Source: Bacilli bacterium (GTDB taxonomy: Bacteria; Bacillota_I; Bacilli_A; RF39; UBA660). From it: 64,000 bases of DNA. The notes below the pieces were generated by a model. The model searched no databases and was not told the origin of the DNA. It was given only the letters and a program-made list of their open reading frames with translations. Location: contig JAFWMN010000006.1 in NCBI GenBank assembly GCA_017513865.1, positions 107,064 through 171,063 on the forward strand. The letters run 5' to 3'. How positions within the stretch are numbered: the first letter of the stretch is position 1; every line of letters starts with the position of its first letter. This document shows, piece after piece, positions 2-58,641 of the stretch. A program made the position numbers and the translations under genes.

Positions 2-370
2 TCTCATACCGAATCTGATACGAATGTAACTTACACAGTTACTTTAAGTAAGCCAACAGACTTTTATGAGTTTACTATCACTGTAATAAATGATGGTAAT
101 TTTAATGCTAATTTAACTTCAATCACAATGCCAACACTTACTGCACAACAAGCAAAATATTTGACTCATACTGTTACATATAACGGTACAGATTATAATT
201 CATCTCAAACAGGATTAGCTGTAGCTTTACCTTGTACTTCTGGTTCTAATACTAAAGTTTTAAAGGTTAGAGTTGCTTATATTCAACCTGAGTATAGTAC
301 AGATTTACCAACGACAGCTGATGCAACAGTAACTTTAAATGTAACTCTTCATTACGATCAAGTAGCTTAA
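2..370 (+). CDS. 3' fragment of a secreted beta-rich protein (gene starts upstream of the window). It shares a Thr/Asn-rich 'DFYEF...NDGNF' pattern with the 2605..4167 protein, making it a possible TasA-like / SipW-cognate fibre protein.
   Basis: The frame is open from base 2 to the stop at 368-370. The composition and motifs resemble the downstream secreted protein, and it lies immediately upstream of a SipW-type peptidase. Confidence 0.45.
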   Translation, partial: SHTESDTNVTYTVTLSKPTDFYEFTITVINDGNFNANLTSITMPTLTAQQAKYLTHTVTYNGTDYNSSQTGLAVALPCTSGSNTKVLKVRVAYIQPEYSTDLPTTADATVTLNVTLHYDQVA

Positions 371-418
371 TATGTATTCCATCATTTAGATGGAATATAC
401 CTGTTTAAAGGGGTATTT

Positions 419-1561
419 ATGAAAAAAAATGCGAAAATCATTTATGTTTGTGAGTTAATACTATTTATATATTTAATTTTGTTTGCAGTCTTAATAAATG
501 TAGTATCGCCATTTTTCAAAAGTGTTTCCACAATAGTGATTCTTGTGGTTATACTAGCTTTGTTAATTGCTTTTTTTGGCATGTCAAAAGATAAAAATTA
601 TTTACGAGGAACATCAACTAGGATTGTTATTTCTGGGTTGATGGCTTTCTTTCTAATAATATATGCATTAGGTATTCTTTTAGGATTTAATAAAGGTTAT
701 ATTTATAATGATTTTTTTACTTTAATGAAAAACATAATTTTTATTATATCTTTTACGGTGCTGCTTGAATTAATAAGATATTTAATTGCTAAAAATTCTT
801 TCCAGAATGGTAGATTAATCTTTGTTTTTACTATTTTAAGTGCAATTCTTAATATATTGTTAGAAATAAATATGGGCGTTTTGTCAACGTATGAGGATAA
901 ATTTATTTTTTTGAGTAAAGTTATTTTTCCAGTTGTTGCTGGAGAAGCTTTGTGCAGTTTTATGACAGTTAAAACCGGAATGTTACCTAGTGTTGTATAT
1001 AAATTGGTTATGAATTTATATATTTATATACTTCCTATTGTCCCTGATTTAGGAAATTATATTTATTCCGTTGCCAATATTCTTTTGCCATTTATTTTAT
1101 ATAGTGTTTTAAACAGAATAATTGTGCACTATGATAAAGAAAAAGAGCAATTAAGGAAGATTAATTTAGTTGTTTTTGTGACACCATTAATTATTCTGTT
1201 TTTGATTTTAGTAGCATTAGTTTCTGGAATTTTTAAGCATAGAATAATTGCGGTTGCTTCTAATTCAATGGCACCTACTTATAGACGTGGTGATGCTATT
1301 ATATATGAAAAAGTAGATGTATCAAATTTAGAGGTTGGTCATATATTAGCTTTTAAGCGTGAAGGCCTTATAATAACACATAGAATTACAAAAATATGGA
1401 AACAAAATGGCAAATATTACTTTACGACAAAAGGCGATAATAATAAAGACGTTGACCTTTATACGCCAAAAGAGGAAGATGTCTTAGGAAGGGTTAGGAT
1501 GACTTTTAAATTAATAGGTTATCCAACAGTTATAATAAATGAATATTTTGGAAAGGAGTAG
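419..1561 (+). CDS. Archaeal/ER-type signal peptidase I (SipW-like, S26B) fused to a ~250-aa N-terminal polytopic membrane domain.
   Basis: The C-terminal ~120 aa carry SNSMAPT (catalytic Ser), ITHRI (His) and TKGDNN motifs typical of SipW/Sec11. The N-terminal part has about 7 hydrophobic segments. An RBS (AAAGGGG) precedes the ATG. Confidence 0.75.
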   Translation: MKKNAKIIYVCELILFIYLILFAVLINVVSPFFKSVSTIVILVVILALLIAFFGMSKDKNYLRGTSTRIVISGLMAFFLIIYALGILLGFNKGYIYNDFFTLMKNIIFIISFTVLLELIRYLIAKNSFQNGRLIFVFTILSAILNILLEINMGVLSTYEDKFIFLSKVIFPVVAGEALCSFMTVKTGMLPSVVYKLVMNLYIYILPIVPDLGNYIYSVANILLPFILYSVLNRIIVHYDKEKEQLRKINLVVFVTPLIILFLILVALVSGIFKHRIIAVASNSMAPTYRRGDAIIYEKVDVSNLEVGHILAFKREGLIITHRITKIWKQNGKYYFTTKGDNNKDVDLYTPKEEDVLGRVRMTFKLIGYPTVIINEYFGKE

Positions 1562-1565
1562 AAAA

Positions 1566-2618
1566 ATGAAAAAGTATAAGAAAAATAAGTTTTTTCAGTT
1601 TTTATTTCCTTTCCTTTTTATTATTGGAATAGTTCTTATTTTTTTTGGTTTTAGAGATCGAAAAATTGTTAATTTAAAGTATAAGGAAGATAATAAAATA
1701 AATTATAATGTTTACTTGAAACCTAATAGTTTTTTTGAAACGCCATATTTAGGTGAAAACGAAACATATATTGCTAGTTTGATAGATTATATTGATATTC
1801 ATTTTCATTATGGAATAAAATATGATAAAAAGTTTTCGGGAAACTATAAATATAAATTTGTTGCTTTAGTTAGCGCTAATAAAAAGGATGCGAATGGTCA
1901 TTATTGGCAAAGAGAATATAGTTTAACCGAATTTAAAAATTTTGATGCAGTTAATCAGGATTTTATAGCAATAGATGATAATGTTAAAGTTAATTATGGT
2001 ACCTATAATGATATTTTAAATCAATTTAGAAAAGAATATGATTTAACAACACAGGGCGAATTAAAGGTTATTATGAAGGTAAGCAGTAATTTTCAGTTTA
2101 CCGAAGTAAAAGAACCTGTAGTTGATGATAGTGAACTTAATTTATCAATTCCTTTGTTAGAACAAGCTTTAGAACTTTCTATTAATAAAGATGTTTCTAA
2201 TGAAAGAGATGTTGTTTCTTTTGTTGAGAGTGATAATAGTATAATTTATATTTTCTTTAAAATTTTTGGAACACTTTGTATTATTTTTTCAATTGCTGGC
2301 TTTGTGATTGCTACAAAACGAGCAAGGGAATTTAGAAAAAACAATTTATATACGTTAAAACTTGATAAAATACTTAAAAATTATGACAGCATTATTGCTA
2401 ACGTTAAAAAGCTTCCTAATATTAATGATTTCAAAAAAATAGAAATAAGTAGTTTTGAAGAACTTTTAGATGTTTATAGTGAAGTTAGAATGCCTATAAA
2501 TTGTTATCAAGGAAGATATGAAGCTCTATTTGTTATAATTAATAATGAAACAGCATGGGTTTATAAGTTAAAAAGGTCAGACTTATCTGAAAAGAGTGAT
2601 GACTATGAAGAAGATTAA
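1566..2618 (+). CDS. Bitopic membrane protein of unknown function, with one N-terminal and one C-proximal TM helix, encoded in the SipW operon.
   Basis: An AAGGAG RBS precedes ATG 1566 (the track ORF starts earlier, at 1539). Hydrophobic segments are FFQFLFPFLFIIGIVLIFFGF and IYIFFKIFGTLCIIFSIAGFVIA. It overlaps neighbouring genes in an operon-like way. Confidence 0.55.
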   Translation: MKKYKKNKFFQFLFPFLFIIGIVLIFFGFRDRKIVNLKYKEDNKINYNVYLKPNSFFETPYLGENETYIASLIDYIDIHFHYGIKYDKKFSGNYKYKFVALVSANKKDANGHYWQREYSLTEFKNFDAVNQDFIAIDDNVKVNYGTYNDILNQFRKEYDLTTQGELKVIMKVSSNFQFTEVKEPVVDDSELNLSIPLLEQALELSINKDVSNERDVVSFVESDNSIIYIFFKIFGTLCIIFSIAGFVIATKRAREFRKNNLYTLKLDKILKNYDSIIANVKKLPNINDFKKIEISSFEELLDVYSEVRMPINCYQGRYEALFVIINNETAWVYKLKRSDLSEKSDDYEED

Positions 2619-4167
2619 TTTAAATAATAACGATAAAAAAACTATTAATATTAATATCTTTATGTCGGTATTGATTGTAGTTGTTTTATCGTTTATTTCT
2701 GTTGGTTATGCTTTATATGGTCAGAATTTAAGTGTGAGTGGTAATATTGGTTTTGGTCTTCAGGGTAAGATTGCGATTACTGATGTTACATTAACTTCAT
2801 CTACTAATGTTAGATCCGACAGTATTCCATCTTTTACTGATGATAGTGTTGATTTTAATTTGACTTTTGAAAAAGCTGCTGGGTCAACAGATCCGAATTA
2901 TCAAGCTGTTTATGAAATTACGATTTCTAATGGAACATTTTATGATTTTGAGTTTAATTTAGCAAATTTTCAACCAATTATAACTAATTCTCATGGAATA
3001 AATGTTGATCCGTCTTTTTTATCTACTTCTTTAAGTGGTATAAATATAGGGGATATGATTCCAGCTGGCGAGGATGTTACTTTTACGTTAACTTTGGATT
3101 TTAGACCTGACGTTGACGATACTTATTCAGTTAGTGGTGATATGGAAACAGAATTGGTAGAAGAACCACATGGGAGTCTTTTGGGATCTGTCCCTGAAGG
3201 TGCGCAAGGTGATTTGAAGGAAAGTTTAGGACATGATATTGTCTCTTTTACAGTAACAGTTATTAATTCTTATCAATCAAGTAGAACTTTTAATATAAAT
3301 ATTGCTGATACGAGTCATTTTCAACTTACTAATTCTGATGGTACTCCGCTTAGCAATTTTACAATAGCTGGAGGAACAACAGACACATATACTTTTTATG
3401 TAAAAAGAGTTAATGGAGCAATTTTTGGTGCTTCAAGTTTTACTACAGGAATTTATCTTTCTTATTCAGAAAATTCTAATGTTCCTTGCGGGAACGTTAC
3501 TTTATTTGTTGATGAAACGCAAATTGATGATACGACACCGCCACAAATTAGTGATGTAACTGCTGTTCAAAATAATGCGACAAGTAGCACAACTACTAAT
3601 GATACGGTTGGTTCAGTTACTGTTTCTTGGAACGGCGAAGATGCTGAATCTGGTGTAAAAAAATACTATGTTATTGTGAAAAATTCTAAAGGATCAACAA
3701 CTTATGAAACTACTGACAACACACCATCTTTAACGATTACGGGGCTTATAGATGACAGTAATTATACTTTCAAGGTTTATGGTGAAAACAACGATAATTA
3801 TAAGCCTAACGATAGTCAAATAGCTGTTGATTCGACAAGTCCTGGTGTTTGTTCAATGTCTACATCTTATTCATTTGATTGGCGTTATACAGTTGCATTT
3901 TCATCTGACACAAATAATATGCGAGAGTTGTCAACCACAGCCGTAAATAGGGGATATAATTATACCGTGACTCTTAGAGCCTCTAATAATTATAATCTTC
4001 CTAGTTCATTAAATTATGTAACCATGGGTGGGAATGAAATTACTTCTACCTCTGGGACAGAAACAGGACATTATAAATATACAAGTAGTAGTGGTTCTTT
4101 TAATGTATATGGGGTTACCGGAGATATTGTATTAAAACTAACACCAACAAGAAGTGGTGGATGTTAA
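2605..4167 (+). CDS. Large secreted protein with a SipW-cognate-type N-terminal signal (…ISVGYALYGQNLSVSG…) and a fibronectin-III-like domain. It is a likely SipW substrate or fibre/adhesin subunit.
   Basis: A basic N-terminus and hydrophobic core are followed by a GYAxY motif resembling the TasA/camelysin class. The FN3-like segment is 'TPPQISDVTAV…VSWNGEDAESGVKKYYVIV…YTFKVYGEN'. The start could be 2596 (GTG), 2599 or 2605; the AAAGAG RBS favours 2605. Confidence 0.6.
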   Translation: MKKINLNNNDKKTININIFMSVLIVVVLSFISVGYALYGQNLSVSGNIGFGLQGKIAITDVTLTSSTNVRSDSIPSFTDDSVDFNLTFEKAAGSTDPNYQAVYEITISNGTFYDFEFNLANFQPIITNSHGINVDPSFLSTSLSGINIGDMIPAGEDVTFTLTLDFRPDVDDTYSVSGDMETELVEEPHGSLLGSVPEGAQGDLKESLGHDIVSFTVTVINSYQSSRTFNINIADTSHFQLTNSDGTPLSNFTIAGGTTDTYTFYVKRVNGAIFGASSFTTGIYLSYSENSNVPCGNVTLFVDETQIDDTTPPQISDVTAVQNNATSSTTTNDTVGSVTVSWNGEDAESGVKKYYVIVKNSKGSTTYETTDNTPSLTITGLIDDSNYTFKVYGENNDNYKPNDSQIAVDSTSPGVCSMSTSYSFDWRYTVAFSSDTNNMRELSTTAVNRGYNYTVTLRASNNYNLPSSLNYVTMGGNEITSTSGTETGHYKYTSSSGSFNVYGVTGDIVLKLTPTRSGGC

Positions 4168-4170
4168 TAA

Positions 4171-4204
4171 AAAACACTATTTTTTATGAATAGTGTTTTT
4201 TTTG
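4171..4204. terminator. Bidirectional rho-independent terminator between convergent genes.
   Basis: A perfect 11-bp inverted repeat (AAAACACTATT / AATAGTGTTTT) has a 7-nt loop and is followed by a T-run on the + strand. Confidence 0.7.
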
Positions 4205-4860
4205 ATAATCAAAAAAGCGGTTATTATAAAGAGAAAAATGCTGAAAATTTGGTTTGAGGAAATTAGTTCTTTAATGTGACTATACCTTAGAAAATCTAAG
4301 GAAAATTTAAGGATTGAAATTAAAAGTAAAGTGATATAAGAAATGTTTTTTTTGTTTTTATTTGTATTACAGAAAAGAAATAAAATAAAAAACACGAAAG
4401 ATTCTAATAACTGTATAGGGAATAGGGGAATATTTAATCCATGAGGGTAGGTTACGCTGAAAGGTCCATTATAAGGAATGCCATAGCAACACCCAACAAA
4501 GAAACATCCAATTTTTCCGAAACTATAAATTAGCGGTAATGAAAGAATTGAATATTTAATTATTTTTTTATCTGAAGGATATATTTTTTCATAAATTAAT
4601 GGTGATATGATAACGCCAATTAATCCCCCATATGAGGAAAGACCACATTCTAAAAACTTTTTTTTAAAGCCACTTACAACAAATGTGTAAGTTTTAGCAG
4701 ACATATAGGTGATAATGAAGAAAAATATAAAAAAAAGTAGGATATTTTTTTTAGATATATTTTCATTTTTTAATGCAAAAAAAACATATAAAATGCCAAT
4801 GATAATTGAGAAGGACATCATTATTTTATAAAAAGGAAAAGGAATGTTATGTATTATCAT
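4177..4860 (-). CDS. Lgt-family (prolipoprotein diacylglyceryl transferase-like) paralog, short at 227 aa, with a mutated signature motif.
   Basis: It is colinear with Lgt (YGGLIGVII aligns with Lgt HGGLIGAIL). The Lgt signature GRWGNFxNxEAHG is replaced by GKIGCFFVGCCYG, and the C-terminal region is truncated. Confidence 0.55.
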   Translation of the reverse strand: MIIHNIPFPFYKIMMSFSIIIGILYVFFALKNENISKKNILLFFIFFFIITYMSAKTYTFVVSGFKKKFLECGLSSYGGLIGVIISPLIYEKIYPSDKKIIKYSILSLPLIYSFGKIGCFFVGCCYGIPYNGPFSVTYPHGLNIPLFPIQLLESFVFFILFLFCNTNKNKKNISYITLLLISILKFSLDFLRYSHIKELISSNQIFSIFLFIITAFLIIKKNTIHKK

Positions 4861-5084
4861 ATTATCACAACTTTCTATTTGAATTTTATCACAAAACTAG
4901 TTTTAAAACAATATTTTTTTATAATCGAAATTATGTGTATATTAGCTTTTTTGTGTTGATTATAAGTGATTATTTGTATGTAAACTAGGTTCTTGGAAAT
5001 ATAATTAATATATGATAAAATAGTTTTGATAAAAAGAGGCTATAATGAAATCTGGTTTACCAGTGTAAGAAAAGGAGATATGCG

Positions 5085-5924
5085 ATGATTTTACTAGATG
5101 GAAAAAAAGCCAAAATAAGTATTTTAGAAGAATTAAAAGAGGAATTATTAAAACTTGATAGAAAATTAGGATTAACAGTTATTCAAATTGGTGATGATCC
5201 AGCCAGTAATGTTTATGTTAGGAATAAAGGTAAGATGGCCAATGATTTAAATTATAATTTTAATCATATAAAACTTGATGATGACATTACTGAAGAAGAT
5301 GTTTTAGCTTTAATTAATAAGCTTAATAATGATGATATAGTTGATGGTATTTTAGTTCAAATGCCTATACCTAAACATTTAGATTCTAAAAAAATTCAAA
5401 ACGCGATTATTTCAGTTAAAGATGTTGATGGACTTACTGATATAAATATGGGTAAGCTTGCTCATGGAGTTGATTCTTTGGTCCCTTGTACAGCCATGGG
5501 AATATTAGATTTATTAAGATTTTATAACTTAGATGTTGAAAAGAAAAATGTAGCTATTGTTGGTAGAAGTGATTTAGTTGGTAAACCTTTAGCAAGTTTA
5601 TTAACTAATAATAATGCGACTGTGACTTTGTGTCATTCTAAAACAGAAAATTTAAAAGAACATACGAAACTTGCGGACATATTAGTAGTAGCCGTTGGAA
5701 AACCTAAGTTAATAAATGATGAATATATAAAAGAAGGAGCAGTAGTAGTCGATGTTGGAATAAACCGTACGGAAGAAGGTTTGGTTGGTGATGTCGATTT
5801 CGAAAAGGTTAAAGATAAGGTAAGTTATATTACACCAGTTCCTGGAGGAGTTGGTCAAATGACTGTAGCGGAACTTGGTAAAAACACATATAAAGCACAT
5901 GTGCTTAGAAAGAAAAAATTGTAG
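5085..5924 (+). CDS. folD: Bifunctional methylenetetrahydrofolate dehydrogenase / methenyl-THF cyclohydrolase.
   Basis: Hallmark FolD motifs are present: IQIGDDPASNVYVRNK, VPCTAMGILDLL, GRSDLVGKPLASLL, VGINR, PVPGGVGQMTVAEL. Confidence 0.92.
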   Translation: MILLDGKKAKISILEELKEELLKLDRKLGLTVIQIGDDPASNVYVRNKGKMANDLNYNFNHIKLDDDITEEDVLALINKLNNDDIVDGILVQMPIPKHLDSKKIQNAIISVKDVDGLTDINMGKLAHGVDSLVPCTAMGILDLLRFYNLDVEKKNVAIVGRSDLVGKPLASLLTNNNATVTLCHSKTENLKEHTKLADILVVAVGKPKLINDEYIKEGAVVVDVGINRTEEGLVGDVDFEKVKDKVSYITPVPGGVGQMTVAELGKNTYKAHVLRKKKL

Positions 5925-6063
5925 ATTTATTTAAGATTGAGGATAATAAAAAGGAAAATATTAAGATTGATAAAATTTTAAAATAAGAGAGCAAGATTTT
6001 TAAATCTTGTTTTCTTATGCTATAAATGTTAGAATATTTTTAGTTTTAGAAAGGAGGCTTTCC

Positions 6064-8010
6064 ATGTTTGAACTTGTATCAAATTTTAAACCAACTGGTG
6101 ATCAGCCAGAGGCTATAAAAGAGTTAGTTGATGGTGTGCGTGAAGGGAAAAGGCAGCAGGTCCTAAAAGGGGTTACTGGTTCTGGTAAAACCTTTACAAT
6201 GGCTAATGTTATAAAAGAACTTGGCAAACCTACTTTAGTTTTAGCGCACAATAAGACCTTAGCAGGACAACTTTATGCAGAGTTTAAAGAATTATTTCCA
6301 AACAATCATGTATGTTATTTTGTATCTTATTATGACTATTATCAACCAGAAGCATATGTGGCTAAGACTGACACATATATAGAAAAAGACGCTTCTATTA
6401 ATGATGAAATAGATGAGCTTAGACATTATGCTACGGCATCACTTTTAGCTCATAAAGATGTTATTGTTGTTGCTTCAGTTTCTTGTATTTATGGTATAGG
6501 TGAAATCGAAGATTATAAAGAAAAAGTATTATTTTTAAATGTTGGTGAAAATGTTAATAGAGATAAAATACTTGAAAAATTAGTTGATATGCTTTATGAA
6601 CGAAACAATATTGATTTAAAAAGAGGAACTTTTAGAGTTAGAGGAGATATTTTAGAAATTGTTCCCATAGGACAACATTCACATGGAATTAGAGTTGAGT
6701 TTTTTGGGGACGAAATTGATAGAATTTCAGAGTTTGATTTAGTAACGGGATCATTAATAACTGATAAGAAATCATATACTTTATTTCCTGCAAGTCATTT
6801 TGTAACAAGTGAGGATAAGCTTAACGTCGCTATTGAAAGAATAAAAAATGAACTAGATGAGCAGTTAAATAAATTTAAAAGTGAAAATAAACTTTTAGAG
6901 TATCAAAGATTAAAAGAGAGAACTAATTATGATATAGAAATGCTTAGTGAAACAGGGTTTTGTAGAGGGGTTGAAAATTATTCTAGGCACTTAGCTTTAA
7001 GAGAAGCTGGAGTTGCCCCAACCACTTTAATAGATTTTTTTGGTGATGATTTTTTACTTTTTGTAGATGAATCTCATGTTACATTACCTCAAGTTAAAGC
7101 AATGTATAATGGAGATAGAATGCGTAAGCAAGCGTTAGTTGATTATGGGTTTAGACTTCCTAGTGCTTTAGATAATAGACCGCTTACTTTTTCAGAGTTT
7201 GAAAAAAAATTAGATAACGTTATTTATGTTTCCGCAACACCAGGTGATTATGAAATAGAAAAAAGTTCTAATAGGGTTATTGAGCAAATTATAAGACCAA
7301 CCGGATTACTTGATCCAGAAATAGAGGTTAAACCAACGAAAAATCAAATTGATGATTTGGTTGAGCAAATACATAAGCAAAATGAGAAAAATGAAAGAAC
7401 CTTGATAACTACTTTGACTATTAGAATGGCTGAAGAACTTACGGTTTATCTTAAGGATTTAGATATTAAAGTTGCTTACTTGCACAATGAAATTAAAACT
7501 TTAGAGAGATTGCAAATAATTCATGATTTGCGTAGTGGCAAGTACGACGTAGTTGTAGGAATAAATTTACTTAGAGAAGGAATAGATATACCGGAAGTTA
7601 GCTTAATTGCGATAATGGATGCGGATAAACAAGGGTTTTTAAGAAGTGAACGCAGTTTAATTCAAACAATAGGAAGAGCGGCCAGAAATGCTTCTGGAAG
7701 AGTAATTATGTATGCTGATGAGGTTAGTTCAGCTATGGATGTTGCTATTAAAGAGACAAATAGACGAAGAAAAATTCAAGAAGAATATAATGAAAAGCAT
7801 GGCATTGTTCCTAAGACGATTGTTAAAGCAATTAGAGAAGTTATTTCTAATAATATAGAAATTAAAGAAAAGAAACAAAAGATATCTAAGAAAGATCGCA
7901 ATCTTATGATGATAAATATTGAAAAAGAAATGAAAGAAGCGGCCAAAAATTTAGACTTTGAAAGAGCTATGGAACTTCGTGACATATTATTTGAAATGAA
8001 GAGTGAATAA
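6064..8010 (+). CDS. uvrB: Excinuclease ABC subunit B.
   Basis: The N-terminus is [18 protein letters not shown] with a GVTGSGKTF Walker A, followed by helicase motifs and a C-terminal UvrB/UvrC interaction helix ([11 protein letters not shown]). An AAAGGAGG RBS precedes ATG 6064; the track ORF begins upstream at 6007. Confidence 0.95.
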
Positions 8011-9680: not shown

Positions 9681-10212
9681 TATATTTGAAAACAAAATAT
9701 ATCAAAAACTAATTGATAATAGAATTATATTTTTAAATGGTGAAATAGATGATGAGTCGGCAAGCATGGTTGTTGCCAAGCTTTTGTATCTAGATTCTAT
9801 AAGCCATGAAGATATAGTAATATATATTAACTCTCCAGGAGGAAGTGTGACGAGCGGGCTTATGATATATGATACTATCAAATACTTAAAATCAGATGTT
9901 TCGACTATTAGTATAGGGTTATCAGCTTCGATGGCTTCAATTTTACTTATGTCGGGAACGCATGGTAAGCGAAAAATCCTTCCACACGGAAAAGTAATGC
10001 TTCATGAACTTTCAACAACAACGGGGGGAAAAATTTCCGATATTTTAGTTGCGGCTAATGAAGCAAAAAAAACGAATGAAATTCTCACAAAAATAATTTC
10101 TGAAAACAGCAAGTTAAATTATGAGCAGATTAAAGATAATTTAACCAAAGATTTATGGCTTGATAGTAATAAAGCTTTAGAATATGGCATTGTTGATAAA
10201 GTTATTTGCTAA
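9643..10212 (+). CDS. clpP: ATP-dependent Clp protease proteolytic subunit.
   Basis: ClpP motifs are present: 'IIFLNGEIDD…YINSPGGSVTSGLMIYDT…ISIGLSASMASILL…KRKILPHGKVMLHELS'. A TTG start (alternative TTG at ~9673) sits inside the 3' end of the AAA gene. Confidence 0.85.
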   Translation: MNLKERRRLILTNIFENKIYQKLIDNRIIFLNGEIDDESASMVVAKLLYLDSISHEDIVIYINSPGGSVTSGLMIYDTIKYLKSDVSTISIGLSASMASILLMSGTHGKRKILPHGKVMLHELSTTTGGKISDILVAANEAKKTNEILTKIISENSKLNYEQIKDNLTKDLWLDSNKALEYGIVDKVIC

Positions 10213-10283
10213 AAAGTGAATTTACTAATTCACTTTTTTAATATTTTATTAATAATATGATATAATTGTTAATAGGTGGAATT

Positions 10284-10676
10284 ATGAAAGAAAATTTAAA
10301 AAAATTATTTACTTTTTTTATAAAATTAGTCGGATATACTGTTATACTTATGGCAACTGCACTTATATTTCAAAACACGATATATATAGATAATTCAAAT
10401 TACGGATTATGGTGTTTTGTGGCAGCAGTACTAGTTTTTTTACTGAATGTGACAATAAAGCCATTTTTGGTGTGGCTTACAATTCCAATAACGGGAATTA
10501 CTTTGGGATTATTTTATCCTTTTATCAATTTAATTATATTAAAAATAGTTAGTATTATATTAGGAAGTCATTTTATAATATATGGTATTTTATATGCGGT
10601 GTTTGCTTCAGTTTTAATATCGTTTTTGAATATTTTATTGGATGAACTTGTTTTAAAAAAAATAGAGGGGAAATAA
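10284..10676 (+). CDS. YvlD/DUF360 (phage-holin-4_2-like) small membrane protein.
   Basis: It has four hydrophobic helices and an AGGTGG RBS. It is the synteny partner of uvrB, as in B. subtilis (uvrB-yvlD). Confidence 0.55.
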   Translation: MKENLKKLFTFFIKLVGYTVILMATALIFQNTIYIDNSNYGLWCFVAAVLVFLLNVTIKPFLVWLTIPITGITLGLFYPFINLIILKIVSIILGSHFIIYGILYAVFASVLISFLNILLDELVLKKIEGK

Positions 10677-10679
10677 TAT

Positions 10680-11483
10680 ATGAAATCAGTTATTGATTTG
10701 GGTTTTGTTTCTATTCATATTTATTCTTTATGTATTTTAATAGGTGTTTTACTATCTTTTTATTTAATTTTAAAAGAGAGCGAAAAGCATGGCTTTGATA
10801 AAGAAAAAATTTCAGATTTGCTTTTTTATACGATTATTTTTGGAATAATAGGTGCGAGATTATATTATTGTTTATTTAATTTAGATTATTATTTATCTAA
10901 TCCTTTTTCTGTTTTGAAAATATGGGAAGGGGGATTAGCTATACATGGAGGGATTATTGCTGGATTAATTACTATTTTTGTATATGCCAAAAGACATAAA
11001 TTAAACGTTCTTTGGCTTTTAGATTTTATAGTAGTTGGTTTAATAATTGCTCAAGCTATTGGTAGATGGGGAAATTTCTTTAATGGTGAGGCTCATGGGT
11101 CACTTACGACATTGTCTCATTTAAAAGGAATGAATTTACCTAGTTTTATTATTAAAGGAATGAAAATTGATGGAGTTTATTATATCCCAACCTTTTTATA
11201 TGAGTCTTTATGGTGTTTACTAGGGTTTATAATAATGATTTTAGTAAGACATAAAAAGAATATAAAAATAGGATATTTAACTGGTTTTTATTTTATTTGG
11301 TATTCTTTAGAAAGATTTTTTGTTGAAGGAATGCGTACAGATAGTTTAATGTTAGGTTTATTTAAAATCGCGCAAATAATCTCTATTATTATGTTTATAT
11401 GTGGTATTGTTATATTTATATATAGTTTTATTAATTCTTCAAACTATAATAAAAAACTTGAAAGGAATGATAAAAATGACTAA
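10680..11483 (+). CDS. lgt: Prolipoprotein diacylglyceryl transferase.
   Basis: 'LKIWEGGLAIHGGIIAGL' and the Lgt signature 'GRWGNFFNGEAHG' are present, along with 'PTFLYESLW…EGMRTDSLM'. Confidence 0.92.
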   Translation: MKSVIDLGFVSIHIYSLCILIGVLLSFYLILKESEKHGFDKEKISDLLFYTIIFGIIGARLYYCLFNLDYYLSNPFSVLKIWEGGLAIHGGIIAGLITIFVYAKRHKLNVLWLLDFIVVGLIIAQAIGRWGNFFNGEAHGSLTTLSHLKGMNLPSFIIKGMKIDGVYYIPTFLYESLWCLLGFIIMILVRHKKNIKIGYLTGFYFIWYSLERFFVEGMRTDSLMLGLFKIAQIISIIMFICGIVIFIYSFINSSNYNKKLERNDKND

Positions 11484-12420
11484 ACTTGCAGTTTTAGGGG
11501 GAGGAACAGGTCTTAGTATATTACTTAGAGGTCTAAAAAAACTTCCTTTTGATATTTCTGCGATTGTTTCTGTTTGTGATGATGGTAGTAGTACCGGAAG
11601 ACTTAGAAAAGAATTTAATACGCCAGCTGTTGGGGATATTAGAAAAGTTCTTATAAGTTTGTCAGAAAATGAAGAAACTGTTAAAAAATTACTTGATTAT
11701 CGTTTTGATACTTCTAGTGATTTGGATGGACATGCGCTTGGGAATTTATTATTAACTGGAGCAGATCATGTTGCTGGAAATATGTCAGGTGCTATTGAGC
11801 TGATTAATTCTTTACTTAATTTAAAAGGTAAAGTGATCCCGTTAACTGAGGAAAATGTTACCTTGGTAGGCAAAATGTATGGGGGAAAAACTGTTGTTGG
11901 TGAACATAACATAACAGAATCTAAAGAAAAAATAAAAGATGTTTTTTATAAAAAAATGCCTAAAGCAAACGAGGAAGTTTTAGAAGCAATTAAAGAAGCA
12001 GATGCTATTATCCTTAGCATGGGAAGTTTATTTACTAGTATTATTCCAAATTTGATTTGTAAAGATGTAGTTAAAGAAATAGATAAATCGACTGCAAAAA
12101 TAATATATGTTTGTAATATTATGACGCAGCCGGGAGAAACAGATGATTTTTCGGTTACAGATCATGTAAAACTAATAAACAAGTATTTAGGAAAAAGGAA
12201 AGTTGATGCGGTTGTTTTAAATAACGGTAGTATTTCACCAGAAATTATAAAAAAATATGAAACAACGGAACAAAAAGATTTAGTTAAAGTAGACCGTGAA
12301 AAAATAAATAAAATGAATGTTGATATTATTGAAAATGATTATATTTTAATTGAAAACGAAATTATTAGACACAATGCATTAAGGGTTGCTATTGATGTTA
12401 TTTCATATTTGTTAGATTAG
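11476..12420 (+). CDS. yvcK: Gluconeogenesis factor / UPF0052 (YvcK/GlmR, CofD-like).
   Basis: 'MTKLAVLGGGTGLSILLRGLK…VSVCDDGSSTGRLR' is present. It starts with an ATG overlapping the lgt stop, with RBS AAAGGAAT. Confidence 0.88.
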   Translation: MTKLAVLGGGTGLSILLRGLKKLPFDISAIVSVCDDGSSTGRLRKEFNTPAVGDIRKVLISLSENEETVKKLLDYRFDTSSDLDGHALGNLLLTGADHVAGNMSGAIELINSLLNLKGKVIPLTEENVTLVGKMYGGKTVVGEHNITESKEKIKDVFYKKMPKANEEVLEAIKEADAIILSMGSLFTSIIPNLICKDVVKEIDKSTAKIIYVCNIMTQPGETDDFSVTDHVKLINKYLGKRKVDAVVLNNGSISPEIIKKYETTEQKDLVKVDREKINKMNVDIIENDYILIENEIIRHNALRVAIDVISYLLD

Positions 12421-12431
12421 AGGGTGATTAC

Positions 12432-13346
12432 ATGTCATTTACGGGAGAAGTTAAAGATGAAGTAAGCAAATTAGAATTTATGGAAGCGGAGAATATTTCT
12501 GAACTTTCAGCTATTGTAAATTCTTTTTATGATTTTTCAGGGCAAATTAAAATAATTACTGAAAACAATAGTGTTGCCCGTAGAGTATATTCACTTTTTA
12601 AAGAAATTTATCATGTATATCCTAGTGTTTCGGTTAGAAAAGGGTATAATTATAGTCGTAAACTTTTATATATTGTTGAAGTAAAAAATAATGTTGACCG
12701 TATTTTAAAATCTTTGGGTATTACAAAATCTTTGCCAGAAAATTTTATTTGGTCTGATGAAGATCTTGTTAGAGCTTATTTACGAGGGTTGTTTTTGGTG
12801 TGTGCGAGTGTGAATGATCCAAAAAAATCAAGGTATCATTTAGAATTTAATTTAAATGATTTAAAATATGCTAAATTTGTTCAAAAATTATTAAATGGTT
12901 TTAATTTGAATAGTAAGGTTTTACACCGTGATAATAGATTTATGGTTTATATTAAAGAAGCCGAAAAAATAAGCGATTTACTTAGAGTAATAGGGGCAGT
13001 TAAGGCTGTATTATATTATGAAGATATTAGAATTTATCGTGATCATAAAAATATGACAAATAGATTAAACAATTGCGAACAAGCTAATGTCGATAGAATA
13101 ATTGAAACAGCAAATTCACAAGTAAAAGATATAGTCTTTTTAGAAAAAAATGACGCTTTTGATCTTTTAAGTGATAAAGAAAAAGAAGTGGCAATTTATA
13201 GAAAAAAATACCCCGACGCATCATTATTAGAACTTAGTCAGATAATAAGTTTGGAAACAGGTAATAAAATTACCAAGTCTGGTTTATATCATAGATTTAA
13301 TAAGATTAAAAAATTCGCTGTGAGAATTAAAAACAAAATGAAATAA
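12432..13346 (+). CDS. whiA: DNA-binding sporulation/cell-division regulator WhiA.
   Basis: The N-terminus is MSFTGEVKDE. It shows the conserved yvcK-whiA order, a LAGLIDADG-like middle domain and a C-terminal HTH. Confidence 0.85.
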   Translation: MSFTGEVKDEVSKLEFMEAENISELSAIVNSFYDFSGQIKIITENNSVARRVYSLFKEIYHVYPSVSVRKGYNYSRKLLYIVEVKNNVDRILKSLGITKSLPENFIWSDEDLVRAYLRGLFLVCASVNDPKKSRYHLEFNLNDLKYAKFVQKLLNGFNLNSKVLHRDNRFMVYIKEAEKISDLLRVIGAVKAVLYYEDIRIYRDHKNMTNRLNNCEQANVDRIIETANSQVKDIVFLEKNDAFDLLSDKEKEVAIYRKKYPDASLLELSQIISLETGNKITKSGLYHRFNKIKKFAVRIKNKMK

Positions 13347-13405
13347 TTTTGTTTTTTTTATTGTTAAAAAGTGGCATTTATGTTATCCTTATAATAGGTG
13401 ATAGT

Positions 13406-15229
13406 ATGAAAAAATATGTTAAATTTATATTTATATTTATATTTTTGATGATTGTGGGAATTTATAATGGAAGTGCGTTAAGTGATTCTGTTCATGTTCC
13501 TAATTATGAGAATTATAGATATATTATGGAAACTGAAAGTTTTGCGAACGGATCTAATAGACCGGTAATTTTTACTATTGGCGGTACAGATTATTTTTGT
13601 TCACATCTTCATTTAACTGAACCATGGGATAGAAATTGTTCTAAAATGTCTTTAAATGATAGTAATCCTGGTGATGGTCATTGGTCTCATCCAATGGCAG
13701 CAGCTATTGGTAAATTAGTTCAATATGTTTCTGAACATAAAACAGATGAGAATTTATATTATTTTGAAATCGCTACAAACCAATTCATTAAAAATAAAGG
13801 TGAGGGAGATAATGACAACTCTACAAATGGTGCTGGACCAACATCTACTTATGATAATTTTATGGATCTTATGAATACTGAGTATAATAGGGTTAAGAAT
13901 TTTGCGGCACCAACTATAACAATGACAGCTTTTACCCTTTCTAATAATAACTATACTTCAACTATAACTGTTTCTGGTTGTGAAAGTTGTGAAGTTGCAG
14001 TAAGTCCTAGTAATAAAGGAACATTATCTCATACAAGTGGTAGTAATGGTAATGGAAGTTATACTTTAACTGTTCCAGCAAGTGGTATTACAGCTGGTGC
14101 TAAAACAACATTTACGGTAACAGCTACTGACACTTTAACAGCTAGAATAGCTCGTAACTACAACTGTGGTGAAAACGTTCAAACAATCACACCTTTAGGA
14201 ACTGAAGGATATAGTACTTCTAAAAATGCATCAGCAACAAAAGATATTGAAAGATCTAAAATAATATTTAATAAAAAAGCAGCTGACACTAACGAAGTGC
14301 TTACTGGTGGTTCATTCGAATTTACTAAAAATAATACGGTAGTTGAAACTATTACTGTAGGGAATAAAACTTATCAAGATTTAGCTTTTGGAACTTATTG
14401 TATGGAAGAAAAAGAAGCACCAGAAGGTTATGTTAATGCTAAAGAAAAGAAATGTGTTACTCTTTCTAGTTCTAATCTTAATGCGACAATTACTATTTTT
14501 GATGATTTAACTTCAATTAAAATCAAAAAGATTGACGAAAACACAAAAGAAGCTTTAGAAGGGGCTAAACTAGTAATAGTTGATGAAGATGGTGAAGTTG
14601 TTAGTACAATTAACGATGAAGAATGTTCTTGGACTTCTGACGACGATTATGTATCGTTCTTTGGAATTCCAGTTGGAACATATTATATAAAAGAGCTAGA
14701 AGCCCCAGATGGCTACGAACTTATGCAAAATCAAGTAGAGTTTACAATAAATGAAGATGGATCAGTTGTAACTTCTAAAGAAGAAGATTTATCAGACGAT
14801 TCAATTGTAATTGTTAAGAATAAATTAACTAAAGTTGATATTAGTAAGCAAGACGCGACTACAGGAAAAGAACTTCCAGGAGCAAAATTACAAATTTTAG
14901 ATGCTGATGGCAATGTGGTAGAAGAGTGGACTTCTACAGATACTCCACACCGCGTTGAAGGGCTTAAAGCAGGACACTATTATTTAAAAGAAACAATTGC
15001 TCCTGCCGGTTATGAAAAAACAGAAACAACGGTAGAATTTGTAATATATTCTGATGGTTCTACAAAAGAAGTAGTTATGAAAAACGAACCAATAAAAGTT
15101 AAGGTTCCATCAACTGCTAAAAATATTTCGCTTATTTTAGCAGCAGGCGGCATTATATTTGTAGTTGTTGCCGGAACAATATTCCTTTATCAAGAAGGAA
15201 TAATAAAATCATCTAAGAATAAAAAATAA
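13406..15229 (+). CDS. Cell-wall-anchored surface adhesin with three SpaA/CnaB-type (prealbumin-like) repeats and a non-canonical sorting signal.
   Basis: A signal peptide starts at MKKYVKFIFIF. The repeats carry 'GTYYIKELEAPDGY', 'GHYYLKETIAPAGY' and 'GTYCMEEKEAPEGY'. The C-terminus is 'KVPSTAKN' plus a hydrophobic segment and a KSSKNKK tail. Confidence 0.75.
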   Translation: MKKYVKFIFIFIFLMIVGIYNGSALSDSVHVPNYENYRYIMETESFANGSNRPVIFTIGGTDYFCSHLHLTEPWDRNCSKMSLNDSNPGDGHWSHPMAAAIGKLVQYVSEHKTDENLYYFEIATNQFIKNKGEGDNDNSTNGAGPTSTYDNFMDLMNTEYNRVKNFAAPTITMTAFTLSNNNYTSTITVSGCESCEVAVSPSNKGTLSHTSGSNGNGSYTLTVPASGITAGAKTTFTVTATDTLTARIARNYNCGENVQTITPLGTEGYSTSKNASATKDIERSKIIFNKKAADTNEVLTGGSFEFTKNNTVVETITVGNKTYQDLAFGTYCMEEKEAPEGYVNAKEKKCVTLSSSNLNATITIFDDLTSIKIKKIDENTKEALEGAKLVIVDEDGEVVSTINDEECSWTSDDDYVSFFGIPVGTYYIKELEAPDGYELMQNQVEFTINEDGSVVTSKEEDLSDDSIVIVKNKLTKVDISKQDATTGKELPGAKLQILDADGNVVEEWTSTDTPHRVEGLKAGHYYLKETIAPAGYEKTETTVEFVIYSDGSTKEVVMKNEPIKVKVPSTAKNISLILAAGGIIFVVVAGTIFLYQEGIIKSSKNKK

Positions 15230-24730: not shown

Positions 24731-24814
24731 TTTTTAAAAAAATGTTTGCTACAATATATTCGCTTATGAATTTCTATGGCTTGATTTTTAAGTCATGGCG
24801 GAAGGAGAGATAAT

Positions 24815-58565: not shown

Positions 58566-58641
58566 AGGGGAATAGTTCAGCTGGTAGAACGTCGGTCTCC
58601 AAAACCGAATGTCGTGGGTTCAAATCCTGCTTCCCCTGCCA
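58566..58641 (+). tRNA. tRNA-Trp (anticodon CCA).
   Basis: The cloverleaf has acceptor AGGGGAA/TTCCCCT, an anticodon loop CTCCAAA, a T-loop TTCAAAT and an encoded 3' CCA. It is 76 nt long. Confidence 0.9.

Follow-up and report, generated by a model that had tools for sequence, protein, structure and literature searches.

What do the genes at the start of this stretch build? The window, as we call the whole 64 kb of genome analysed (positions 107,064 to 171,063 of contig JAFWMN010000006.1, Bacilli bacterium), opens with four tightly packed plus-strand genes, for a small secreted protein, a signal peptidase, a DUF5305 membrane protein and a large secreted protein, which are met by a convergent gene for an Lgt-like protein. 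We read the four plus-strand genes, with a probability of about 0.72, as an operon whose products would form an extracellular fibre by donor-strand complementation, in the superfamily of TasA and the archaeal bundling pili, because they bring together the same cast as the Tafi and AbpX systems. So read, the core of the locus is a new bacterial branch of the TasA-superfamily donor-strand fibre systems with signal peptidase I (SPase I) and DUF5305, carried by uncultured low-GC Bacillota, and the modified Lgt gene, which stands where relatives carry a Hint domain, is a twist that has so far gone undescribed. An initial annotation, made from the sequence alone, had proposed a tapA-sipW-tasA-like logic built from different components, and the donor-strand fold, the motif common to both subunits and the co-conservation of the genes bear this out; its view of an uncharacterised system gives way, as DUF5305 proteins and a dedicated SPase I are known from Tafi (TafG/TafD) and from AbpX loci.

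All five open reading frames (ORFs) at positions 2-4860 were found where that annotation had placed them. The window starts inside the gene for the small subunit (pilin); an exact-sequence look-up of the peptidase retrieved the same contig with 10 kb of extra upstream DNA (locus L001; window position = L001 position minus 9582). The features, in window coordinates, are:

2..370, plus strand: 3' part of the pilin gene (last 122 codons of the gene for a 186-amino-acid (aa) secreted protein); full gene at L001 9392..9952
373..399, plus strand: stable RNA hairpin between the pilin stop and the peptidase gene (-16 kcal/mol, z -4.45, 0 of 200 shuffles as stable)
419..1561, plus strand: polytopic signal peptidase I, 380 aa (TIGR02228 match and ~9 hydrophobic segments)
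1566..2618, plus strand: DUF5305 protein, 350 aa from ATG 1566 (PF17231); the ORF is also open from 1539, the start in the ORF list
2605..4167, plus strand: large subunit, 520 aa from 2605 or 523 aa from GTG 2596 (fn3 match, structure model, signal and strand motif)
4147..4164, plus strand: C-terminal tail T-R-S-G-G-C of the large subunit, its terminal Cys aligning with Hint Cys1 of longer relatives
4168..4203, unstranded: bidirectional terminator-like hairpin with U-runs on both strands, overlapping the last codons of the Lgt-like gene
4177..4860, minus strand: Lgt-family paralog, 227 aa (Pfam LGT)

A Shine-Dalgarno sequence, GGAAAGGAG, read directly from the DNA, lies within the 3' end of the peptidase gene, 7 nucleotides (nt) before ATG 1566, and this ATG, 4 nt past the peptidase stop, is the likely start of the DUF5305 gene. 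The large-subunit gene in turn overlaps the DUF5305 stop (2618) by 14 nt. The hairpin at 4168..4203 is stable on the plus strand (-15.9 kcal/mol, z -5.8) and on the minus strand (-11.1 kcal/mol, z -7.2). Because the Lgt-like gene is convergent and separated by this bidirectional U-run hairpin, it forms a separate transcription unit; the operon-like layout first proposed for all five genes thus holds for the four plus-strand genes and not for the fifth. Chance ORFs are ruled out, since every gene is kept in dozens to hundreds of relatives.

The 186-aa protein, which begins MEKKRNGQIAVILVLSVAILFMSIGFAAFFTDLTINGTATVKANRW in the full gene recovered from the same contig, is the candidate for the major fibre subunit. 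Its family, ~185-aa proteins in 80 unnamed clusters, matches no Pfam or NCBIfam model, and searches of all Protein Data Bank (PDB) chains with the pilin alone or as a profile gave chance-level fibronectin type III (FN3) matches only. The mature protein is 34% Thr+Ser+Asn, and its AlphaFold2 (AF2) model (mean predicted local distance difference test score, pLDDT, 89.8) consists of a signal helix, unstructured residues 23-46 and a beta-sandwich, in keeping with the earlier description of the window fragment as Thr/Asn-rich and of beta type. The best matches in a fold search with this model were an archaeal thread, the bundling pilus AbpA, Tafi, cannulae and TasA, which are donor-strand fibre subunits, and an independent Foldseek search placed CanX, TasA, AbpA and thread at ranks 1-4; the scores are moderate and the ranking is strikingly specific. 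The pilin model thus has the beta-sandwich/jelly-roll fold of the TasA superfamily (TasA, AbpA, AbpX, Tafi, thread, CanA/CanX). Judged by modelled fold and by the logic of its locus, the pilin family would belong to this superfamily and to none of its named families.

The large protein is built in the order signal and donor-strand motif, pilin-like domain D1, beta domain D2, FN3 domain, beta domain D4 and a Gly-rich tail that ends in Cys. Its AF2 model (pLDDT 84) has beta domains at residues 59-186, 195-305, 317-398 (FN3) and 419-515, and the fn3 model (PF00041) matches residues 334-405 with 28 bits (cut-off 25), so that the prediction of a 520-aa protein with an FN3 domain is upheld. No significant Pfam or NCBIfam match was found outside FN3. 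The family comprises 68 clusters, of which one is named, solely as 'fibronectin type III domain-containing protein [Bacilli bacterium]'.

What ties the two secreted proteins together is their N-terminus. In both families a positively charged start and a hydrophobic core of 18-20 residues lead to S-[VI]-G-[FY]-A and on to x-[YF]-x-x-x-L-x-[IV]-x-G. Small residues at -3/-1 fit a signal-peptidase site after the Ala; cleavage after the Ala of G-[FY]-A is predicted from the -3/-1 rule only and would give the mature N-termini AFFTDLTINGTA (pilin) and LYGQNLSVSGNI (large subunit). The signal and strand motif is common to the pilin and the large protein (hhalign E 2.9e-7), and in a profile-profile comparison the whole pilin domain aligns to residues 21-175 of the large protein (97.3% probability, E 1.8e-11, 142 columns). 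Every large subunit examined carries the motif, including one with unrelated distal domains, and the residue at +2 is aromatic in 40/48 pilin family members. The predicted donor strands are unstructured in both monomer models (residues 33-55 in the large protein), as is expected of donor strands.

The third component is a peptidase whose residues 249-376 match the archaeal/endoplasmic reticulum (ER)-type signal peptidase I model TIGR02228 with 89.9 bits (cut-off 51.85). S283, H321, R322, D340, N342 and D346 are invariant (139 and 56 members), among them the Ser/His/Asp set S283/H321/D340/D346, and the domain is thereby a member of the archaeal/ER-type SPase I. It scored 60.3 bits against the SipW equivalog NF046067 (cut-off 190). 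Of the 'fused SipW peptidase' proposed at first, the fusion of a SipW-like ER/archaeal catalytic domain to a polytopic domain therefore stands and the identification as SipW itself does not. The N-terminal multi-transmembrane (TM) domain (residues 1-245, window 419-1150) contributes to ~9 hydrophobic segments, which run up to and include the catalytic domain's anchor, and it had no Pfam match in any of 56 members. Its residues G85, E117, P206 and P209 are invariant and G89 and R120 nearly so (R120 ~98%); the charged E-x-x-R pair in a membrane segment suggests a function beyond anchoring, such as substrate or lipid binding. Searched exhaustively with phmmer, 1.84 billion representative proteins yielded 323 full-length representatives at E<=1e-30, nearly all 370-390 aa long and matching end-to-end, and the fusion is therefore a fixed and widespread architecture.

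Directly downstream, the membrane protein matches DUF5305 (PF17231) with 53.3 bits (cut-off 29) over model positions 1-217 of 217, which answers the scan for this domain that had been suggested. Its TM segments at residues 16-44 and 233-260 give the layout TM / extracellular / TM / cytoplasmic, that is, two membrane spans in place of the single span of the bitopic protein first envisaged. This TafG-type layout and the adjacency to the peptidase make it, by analogy, a putative signal-peptidase accessory subunit.

The four genes travel together. The neighbourhoods of large-protein homologues (61, 52, 40 and 36% identical) hold the pilin, a 374-383-aa peptidase, the DUF5305 protein and the large protein between unrelated flanks, those of pilin homologues (53, 42 and 38% identical) show the same four-gene order, again with unrelated flanks, and a check with hidden Markov models (HMMs) counted ten modules in nine loci. 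A metagenome scan seeded by a 12-sequence peptidase alignment added 80 loci (33-66% identical). With our ORF calling, HMMs and motif regular expression, on which these counts depend, a pilin-like gene lies upstream of the peptidase in 59/59 assessable loci, a DUF5305 gene immediately downstream in 76/76, and a motif-bearing large protein next in 46/52; the other six are three-gene modules (L120 was inspected). Comparison of neighbourhoods across relatives, the check named in the initial annotation, thus finds the four plus-strand genes kept in essentially every relative examined. One locus, L012, holds two complete modules ~4 kb apart (782-6202 and 10001-15090) with serine-recombinase and RhuM/Fic-like genes between them; its second large subunit, of 858 aa, has retained the signal and strand motif and carries two copies of an unrelated Cys-containing repeat of ~330 aa.

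Three known systems provide the comparison. In Haloarcula, deletion of the signal peptidase TafD abolishes Tafi and leaves TafA unprocessed, and TafG, a DUF5305 protein, is proposed to assist TafD (PMC11821415); Natrinema Tafi assemble via strand donation (PMC12337348). The locus described here shares with tafA-G (PMC11821415; PMC12337348; PDB 9p0a) an SPase I for subunit processing (TafD), a DUF5305 gene in the locus (TafG), and major and minor subunits, joined by strand donation in Tafi and predicted to be so here, with a larger subunit as the proposed anchor or tip (TafF or TafC). It differs in a Sec-type instead of a Tat signal, in its bacterial host, in the lack of an Lrp-like regulator and in its peptidase, which has an N-terminal polytopic domain, whereas TafD has four TM segments and an N-terminal catalytic domain.

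AbpX polymerises through complementation by an N-terminal donor strand, and AbpX loci of archaea and Clostridia encode a ten-TM SPase I, a DUF5305 'SPase I accessory protein' and minor/tip subunits; in the AbpX N-terminus, ...LTYA/QWSETLSLSATIS (cleavage sites are marked by a slash), W2 forms an 'aromatic clamp' and L6, L8, A10 and I12 are buried (bioRxiv 10.64898/2026.01.04.697558). In common with AbpX loci, the module has a small subunit with a predicted donor strand, in which mature residue 2 would be aromatic and residues 6, 8 and 12 hydrophobic; its own dedicated 'ten-TM' SPase I; a DUF5305 protein of the same layout; and minor/tip subunits in which the predicted strand recurs. The module described here differs in lacking an LPXTG or SLH anchor, sortase and regulators, in a large subunit that has a Hint domain or a Cys tail beside an Lgt-like gene, and in its hosts, uncultured low-GC Bacilli-type metagenome-assembled genomes (MAGs) from gut and rumen, a group absent from the list of AbpX hosts.

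The tapA-sipW-tasA operon of Bacillus subtilis (PDB 8aur; PMC9674648; PMC10151520) likewise encodes an ER/archaeal-type peptidase beside its substrates, and cleavage frees the N-terminal donor strand by which TasA polymerises (...TWA/AFND, with F2 as the aromatic residue; the predicted site here is ...GFA/AFFTD, a resemblance by eye only). TapA, a second substrate whose donor strand serves to nucleate or anchor the fibre, is the component to which we liken the large subunit. SipW has no polytopic domain and the Bacillus operon no DUF5305 gene. Overall, AbpX loci come closest to the module in organisation, and archaeal threads and bundling pili in subunit fold.

By comparison with these systems, the fibre would form as follows. 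The 186-aa major and the 520-aa minor subunit would be exported by Sec and held in the membrane by the signal that ends in ...S-[VI]-G-[FY]-A. Together with the two-span DUF5305 protein, the dedicated polytopic signal peptidase I would cut after that Ala and free the N-terminal amphipathic strand x-[YF]-x-x-x-L-x-I-x-G, here AFFTDLTINGTA and LYGQNLSVSGNI. A neighbouring subunit would then receive the freed strand in its open beta-sandwich, and a non-covalent polymer that needs no chaperone would result. Because the large subunit combines one pilin-like domain with a three-domain beta stalk, we infer that it occupies a fibre end, most likely the one near the cell, as a nucleator or anchor in the manner of TapA and TafF; the alternative, by analogy with TafC, is a distal adhesin. 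The Lgt-like enzyme would be an accessory, gained by one clade probably when the large subunit lost its Hint domain, and attaching lipid to the retained terminal Cys is our best guess at its role.

Several points weigh against a donor-strand fibre. The TIGR04088 and Peptidase_M73 scans suggested in the initial annotation matched nothing: TIGR04088 at E<=10 in the pilin or the first 101 aa of the large protein, and Peptidase_M73 in the 186-aa pilin or the large protein even at E<=10. The SipW equivalog was missed as well (60 bits vs 190). No sequence-level link leads to TasA (Peptidase_M73) or TIGR04088; the SipW-cognate, TasA/camelysin-class signal claimed for the large protein has to be given up, and the likeness to TasA is one of fold and logic only. 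The profile link between the pilin and Pyrococcus abyssi AbpX is weak and in register (hhalign probability 41%, E 3e-4, 131 columns). The AbpX-typical acidic residue at +4 is absent, occurring in 2/48 pilins, and the pilin family is less acidic (median D+E 10.2%, isoelectric point (pI) 4.4) than AbpX (~15%, pI ~4), so that it lacks the acid at +4 and the high acidity that go with Ca-dependent assembly. By these comparisons the module is a member neither of Peptidase_M73, TIGR04088 or the SipW equivalog nor, on present evidence, of the AbpX family. The pilin model was made for a 96%-identical relative from an alignment of 49 homologues, the window holding only the last 122 codons; the structural predictions are of monomers only. 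Finally, the module has no LPXTG motif, SLH domain or C-terminal TM anchor by which the fibre could be attached to the cell.

This last point directs attention to the C-terminus of the large subunit. The window protein ends ...TPTRSGGC, and 27/44 (~60%) of the large subunits of the short class (512-547 aa) have a Gly-rich tail with Cys in the last 0-3 residues. In relatives of 750-830 aa the sequence runs on exactly from the tail Cys with C-L-x-E-G-T-K-I-L-L-A-N-G-x-Y-K-N-I-E-D-I; the junction ...VTGDIxITAxx/C-L-x-E-G-T-K-I-L-L-A-N-G..., found in 27 long relatives, aligns with window positions 4162-4164. Such long subunits were seen in L007, L089-L091 and 24 metagenome loci (e.g. L139 8417-9313). 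All told, relatives from 700 aa upwards carry the domain. A profile of their C-terminal part matches the bacterial intein-like protein BIL2 (PDB 6y75/6tmm) with E 2e-6 over positions 3-142 and an intein with E 3e-3, and Pfam gave Hom_end_hint in 12/24, Hint in 6/24 and Intein_splicing in 5/24, all below gathering thresholds. Like the Hint domains of Hedgehog/Hog and BIL proteins, for which BIL2 is the best PDB match, the domain starts with C-L-x-E-G-T and has an invariant Cys1 and an invariant, block-B-like His; the C-terminal His-Asn of inteins is not conserved, and ~155 further residues follow with no C-extein. The layout is Hedgehog-like and, from its sequence, predicted to autoprocess, able only to cleave or transfer at the preceding Gly. 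We found no paper on a Hint domain in a pilus or fibre subunit.

The Hint profile found nothing in the window, where the large protein stops at the Cys; by the alignment, this terminal Cys would be a relic of Hint Cys1, all that the window protein keeps of the domain. In a tree of the core (all trees here are quick neighbour-joining (NJ) trees that carry no support values), the short, Lgt-linked class forms one clade nested among Hint forms. An independent short large subunit (L145 10169-11647, 492 aa) ends ...TSGTGGCVG and, because it is sister to a Hint-bearing protein, represents a second Hint loss that again kept Cys1; a convergent Mur-ligase-like gene lies downstream of it in place of the Lgt-like gene. 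A disulfide between the tail Cys and a conserved pilin Cys was considered and ruled out, as 7/9 module pilins checked lack Cys, among them the pilins from L004 and L012, two loci with the Cys tail.

The convergent gene is the second unusual element. Its 227-aa product matches Pfam LGT with 86.7 bits and fails the NCBIfam Lgt models (NF000778, 60.2 bits vs 334; TIGR00544, 47.3 vs 118.9). A canonical Lgt of 267 aa with the signature AIGRWGNFFNGEAHG is encoded ~6 kb away at 10680..11483 on the plus strand, after a holin-like gene and before a CofD-family gene; since both lie in the same window, the organism has at least two Lgt-fold enzymes, and the reading of the convergent gene as an Lgt-family paralog is confirmed. 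Lgt proteins carry the signature G-R-x-G-N-F-x-N-x-E-x-x-G, and mutagenesis and structure have shown R143, N146, E151, G154 and R239 to be important in Escherichia coli. The Lgt-like protein lacks this signature; it has the remodelled motif K116-I-G-C119-F-F-V-G123-C124-C125-Y-G127, encoded at ~4480..4515, and the family motif K-x-x-C-x-x-x-G-C-C-x-G is invariant (46 relatives). Alignment to E. coli Lgt (PDB 5azb) shows the LGT fold over the whole length of a protein ~40-65 residues shorter, in which the counterparts of Y26 and G154 are kept, positive charge is kept at the positions of R143, R239 and R246, and other active-site positions are replaced. The following residues are invariant in the 46 relatives:

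E. coli Lgt H103: Y77 in the Lgt-like protein
E. coli Lgt R143: K116
E. coli Lgt N146: C119
E. coli Lgt E151: C124
E. coli Lgt L152: C125
E. coli Lgt G154: G127 (kept)
E. coli Lgt R239: K185
E. coli Lgt R246: R192

The module contains no lipobox substrate. A genome scan found this Lgt-like family at 264 loci, in Bacilli-type MAGs, Lachnospiraceae, Ruminococcus, Roseburia and others, which opens a first genomic way into a widespread family; we found no paper on it or on the zinc-ribbon protein that commonly accompanies it, a protein of 130-270 aa with an N-terminal Zn_Ribbon_1 domain and membrane segments.

Does the Lgt-like gene belong to the fibre system? The simplest rival view is that it is a mere conserved neighbour from a separate, zinc-ribbon-paired membrane system and that the terminal Cys is only a Hint relic, and we rate this an even bet, with the odds of a functional involvement of the gene in the fibre module also about even. 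In its favour, the module is near only 5 of 80 fetched Lgt-like genome loci, whereas a Zn_Ribbon_1 gene precedes the Lgt-like gene on the same strand, often overlapping it, in 40-52 of them (the pairing was seen in L013, L017-L020, L022, L023, L025-L027 and ~30 more genome loci); taken as a whole, the family is not a fibre component. The gene is also convergent and lies behind a bidirectional terminator. Among complete forms in the metagenome set, it adjoins 5/6 short and 0/21 Hint-bearing large subunits, and at loci found by other routes it stands beside all five short-form modules and no Hint-bearing form; as the linked copies form a single clade and so do the short large subunits, this contrast may reflect one ancestral rearrangement, and the association may thus rest on a single event. 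Sub-lineages that have no Cys tail still keep the gene (L006, L008, L010, L099), two of them, L006 and L008/L099, after losing the tail, and L145 has the tail and no Lgt-like gene within 8 kb.

Other observations speak for a link. The five-gene block persists while both flanks change wholly, down to 40% large-subunit identity. On an NJ tree the copies linked to the module make up one clade within the zinc-ribbon-linked ones, and one MAG has both kinds (L018, L024): one paralog lineage gave up the zinc-ribbon partner still present in its relatives and remained next to the module through the change of all flanks. The Gly-rich Cys tail is retained over deep divergence in the short class, the independent Hint loss in L145 also kept the Cys, and the module has no other anchoring device. 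The earlier inclusion of the Lgt-like gene in the module is therefore correct for one clade, where the gene does adjoin it, and not elsewhere, the family's usual partner being the zinc-ribbon protein. Downstream of the Hint-bearing module of L091, two Zn_Ribbon_1 genes (5475-6148) lie just before the contig end; they may hint at how the Lgt-like gene came beside the module.

A C-terminal anchoring role for the Lgt-like gene and the tail Cys is suggestive, short of proof. In its full form the idea would be that the large subunit is a cell-proximal anchor fixed to the membrane via its C-terminus: in most lineages by Hint self-cleavage between Gly and Cys1 and transfer to a lipid or wall nucleophile, with the C-terminal region serving in adduct recognition, and in the window lineage by the Lgt paralog, whose K...C...GCC active site would attach diacylglycerol or another lipid to the Cys left after Hint deletion. 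We consider this complete scheme a long shot. If true, a bacterial pilus would be fixed by a C-terminal lipid anchor that needs no sortase, and the Lgt fold would act on a new class of substrate.

For the four-gene core, the rival to the fibre that deserves most attention is that both secreted proteins are monomeric surface or matrix proteins (adhesins, camelysin-like) that need a dedicated peptidase and form no filament. The beta-sandwich does match non-polymeric CEP192, adaptin ear and FN3-like domains at similar scores, and the large protein is made of adhesin-like Ig/FN3 domains. We nevertheless hold this to be improbable: donor-strand filament subunits take all the top places in both of two independent fold searches, the small, abundant-type subunit and the large one alike have a conserved amphipathic strand at the N-terminus, unstructured and with an aromatic +2, and the same peptidase/DUF5305 pairing serves proven filaments (PMC11821415, PMC12337348).

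It is very unlikely that the peptidase is the general signal peptidase of the organism and stands beside fibre genes by accident. ER/archaeal-type SPase I can be the general peptidase in archaea, and our view is limited to 64 kb of the genome; against this, the neighbours do not vary (59/59 and 76/76 loci), the polytopic N-domain is peculiar to this peptidase family, the related MAG L018 has an ordinary short SPase (176 aa) elsewhere, and there are genomes with two complete modules (L012). A type IV (pseudo)pilus or a sortase-assembled Gram-positive pilus, to which small secreted subunits with hydrophobic N-termini beside a larger FN3-containing subunit might point, is rejected as contradicted by the sequence features tested, namely the lack of a class III signal (G/F-x-x-x-E), prepilin peptidase, assembly ATPase and platform protein on the one hand and of an LPXTG motif or sortase in the module on the other, with a fold that is neither that of a type IV pilin nor SpaA-type.

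Read as a donor-strand fibre operon, the locus adds to a class of chaperone/usher-free fibres recognised only from 2022 (TasA, archaeal bundling pili, threads, Tafi, AbpX), in which the dedicated signal peptidase and its DUF5305 partner are still merely proposed players. A compact four-gene operon in gut and rumen Bacillota would widen the range of such fibres to abundant host-associated bacteria, with a pilin family that is covered by no database model, and would offer a simple model for how a polytopic signal peptidase and a DUF5305 protein license polymerisation. A fibre of this kind would not surprise a specialist; the anchoring lead is unexpected, as a Hint domain, or a bare Cys together with an Lgt paralog, raises the question of a sortase-free way of tying fibres to the Gram-positive cell.

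Some minor features of the locus and its surroundings complete the description. The hairpin at 373..399, between the pilin and peptidase genes, could be a partial terminator or a transcript-stabilising element; its significance is uncertain, and it is not conserved in the relatives L004 and L008. A promoter consensus scan gave 36 sites against 37.5 expected, and promoter and terminator consensus scans are uninformative in such AT-rich DNA. Directly 5' of the pilin gene lies a gene for a TMEM43-family membrane protein (L001 8188-9282, Pfam E 2e-62), probably unrelated, and Fic, Bro-N, ORF6N and RhuM-type genes recur beside the module in otherwise unrelated contexts (L001 7040-8125; L004 2460-4223; L089 886-2921; L012 7346-8278). 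The upstream TMEM43-family and Fic genes were ruled out as module members because they are missing from other module contexts; the recurring Fic/Bro-N/ORF6N/RhuM neighbours may mean that the module resides in variable or mobile regions. The window has a G+C content of ~28% and its relatives are labelled Bacilli (MAG labels); an L31-Firmicutes ribosomal-protein leader at 24774-24807 (plus strand) and one tRNA at 58566-58638 (plus strand), both identified with Rfam, fit a Bacillota host.

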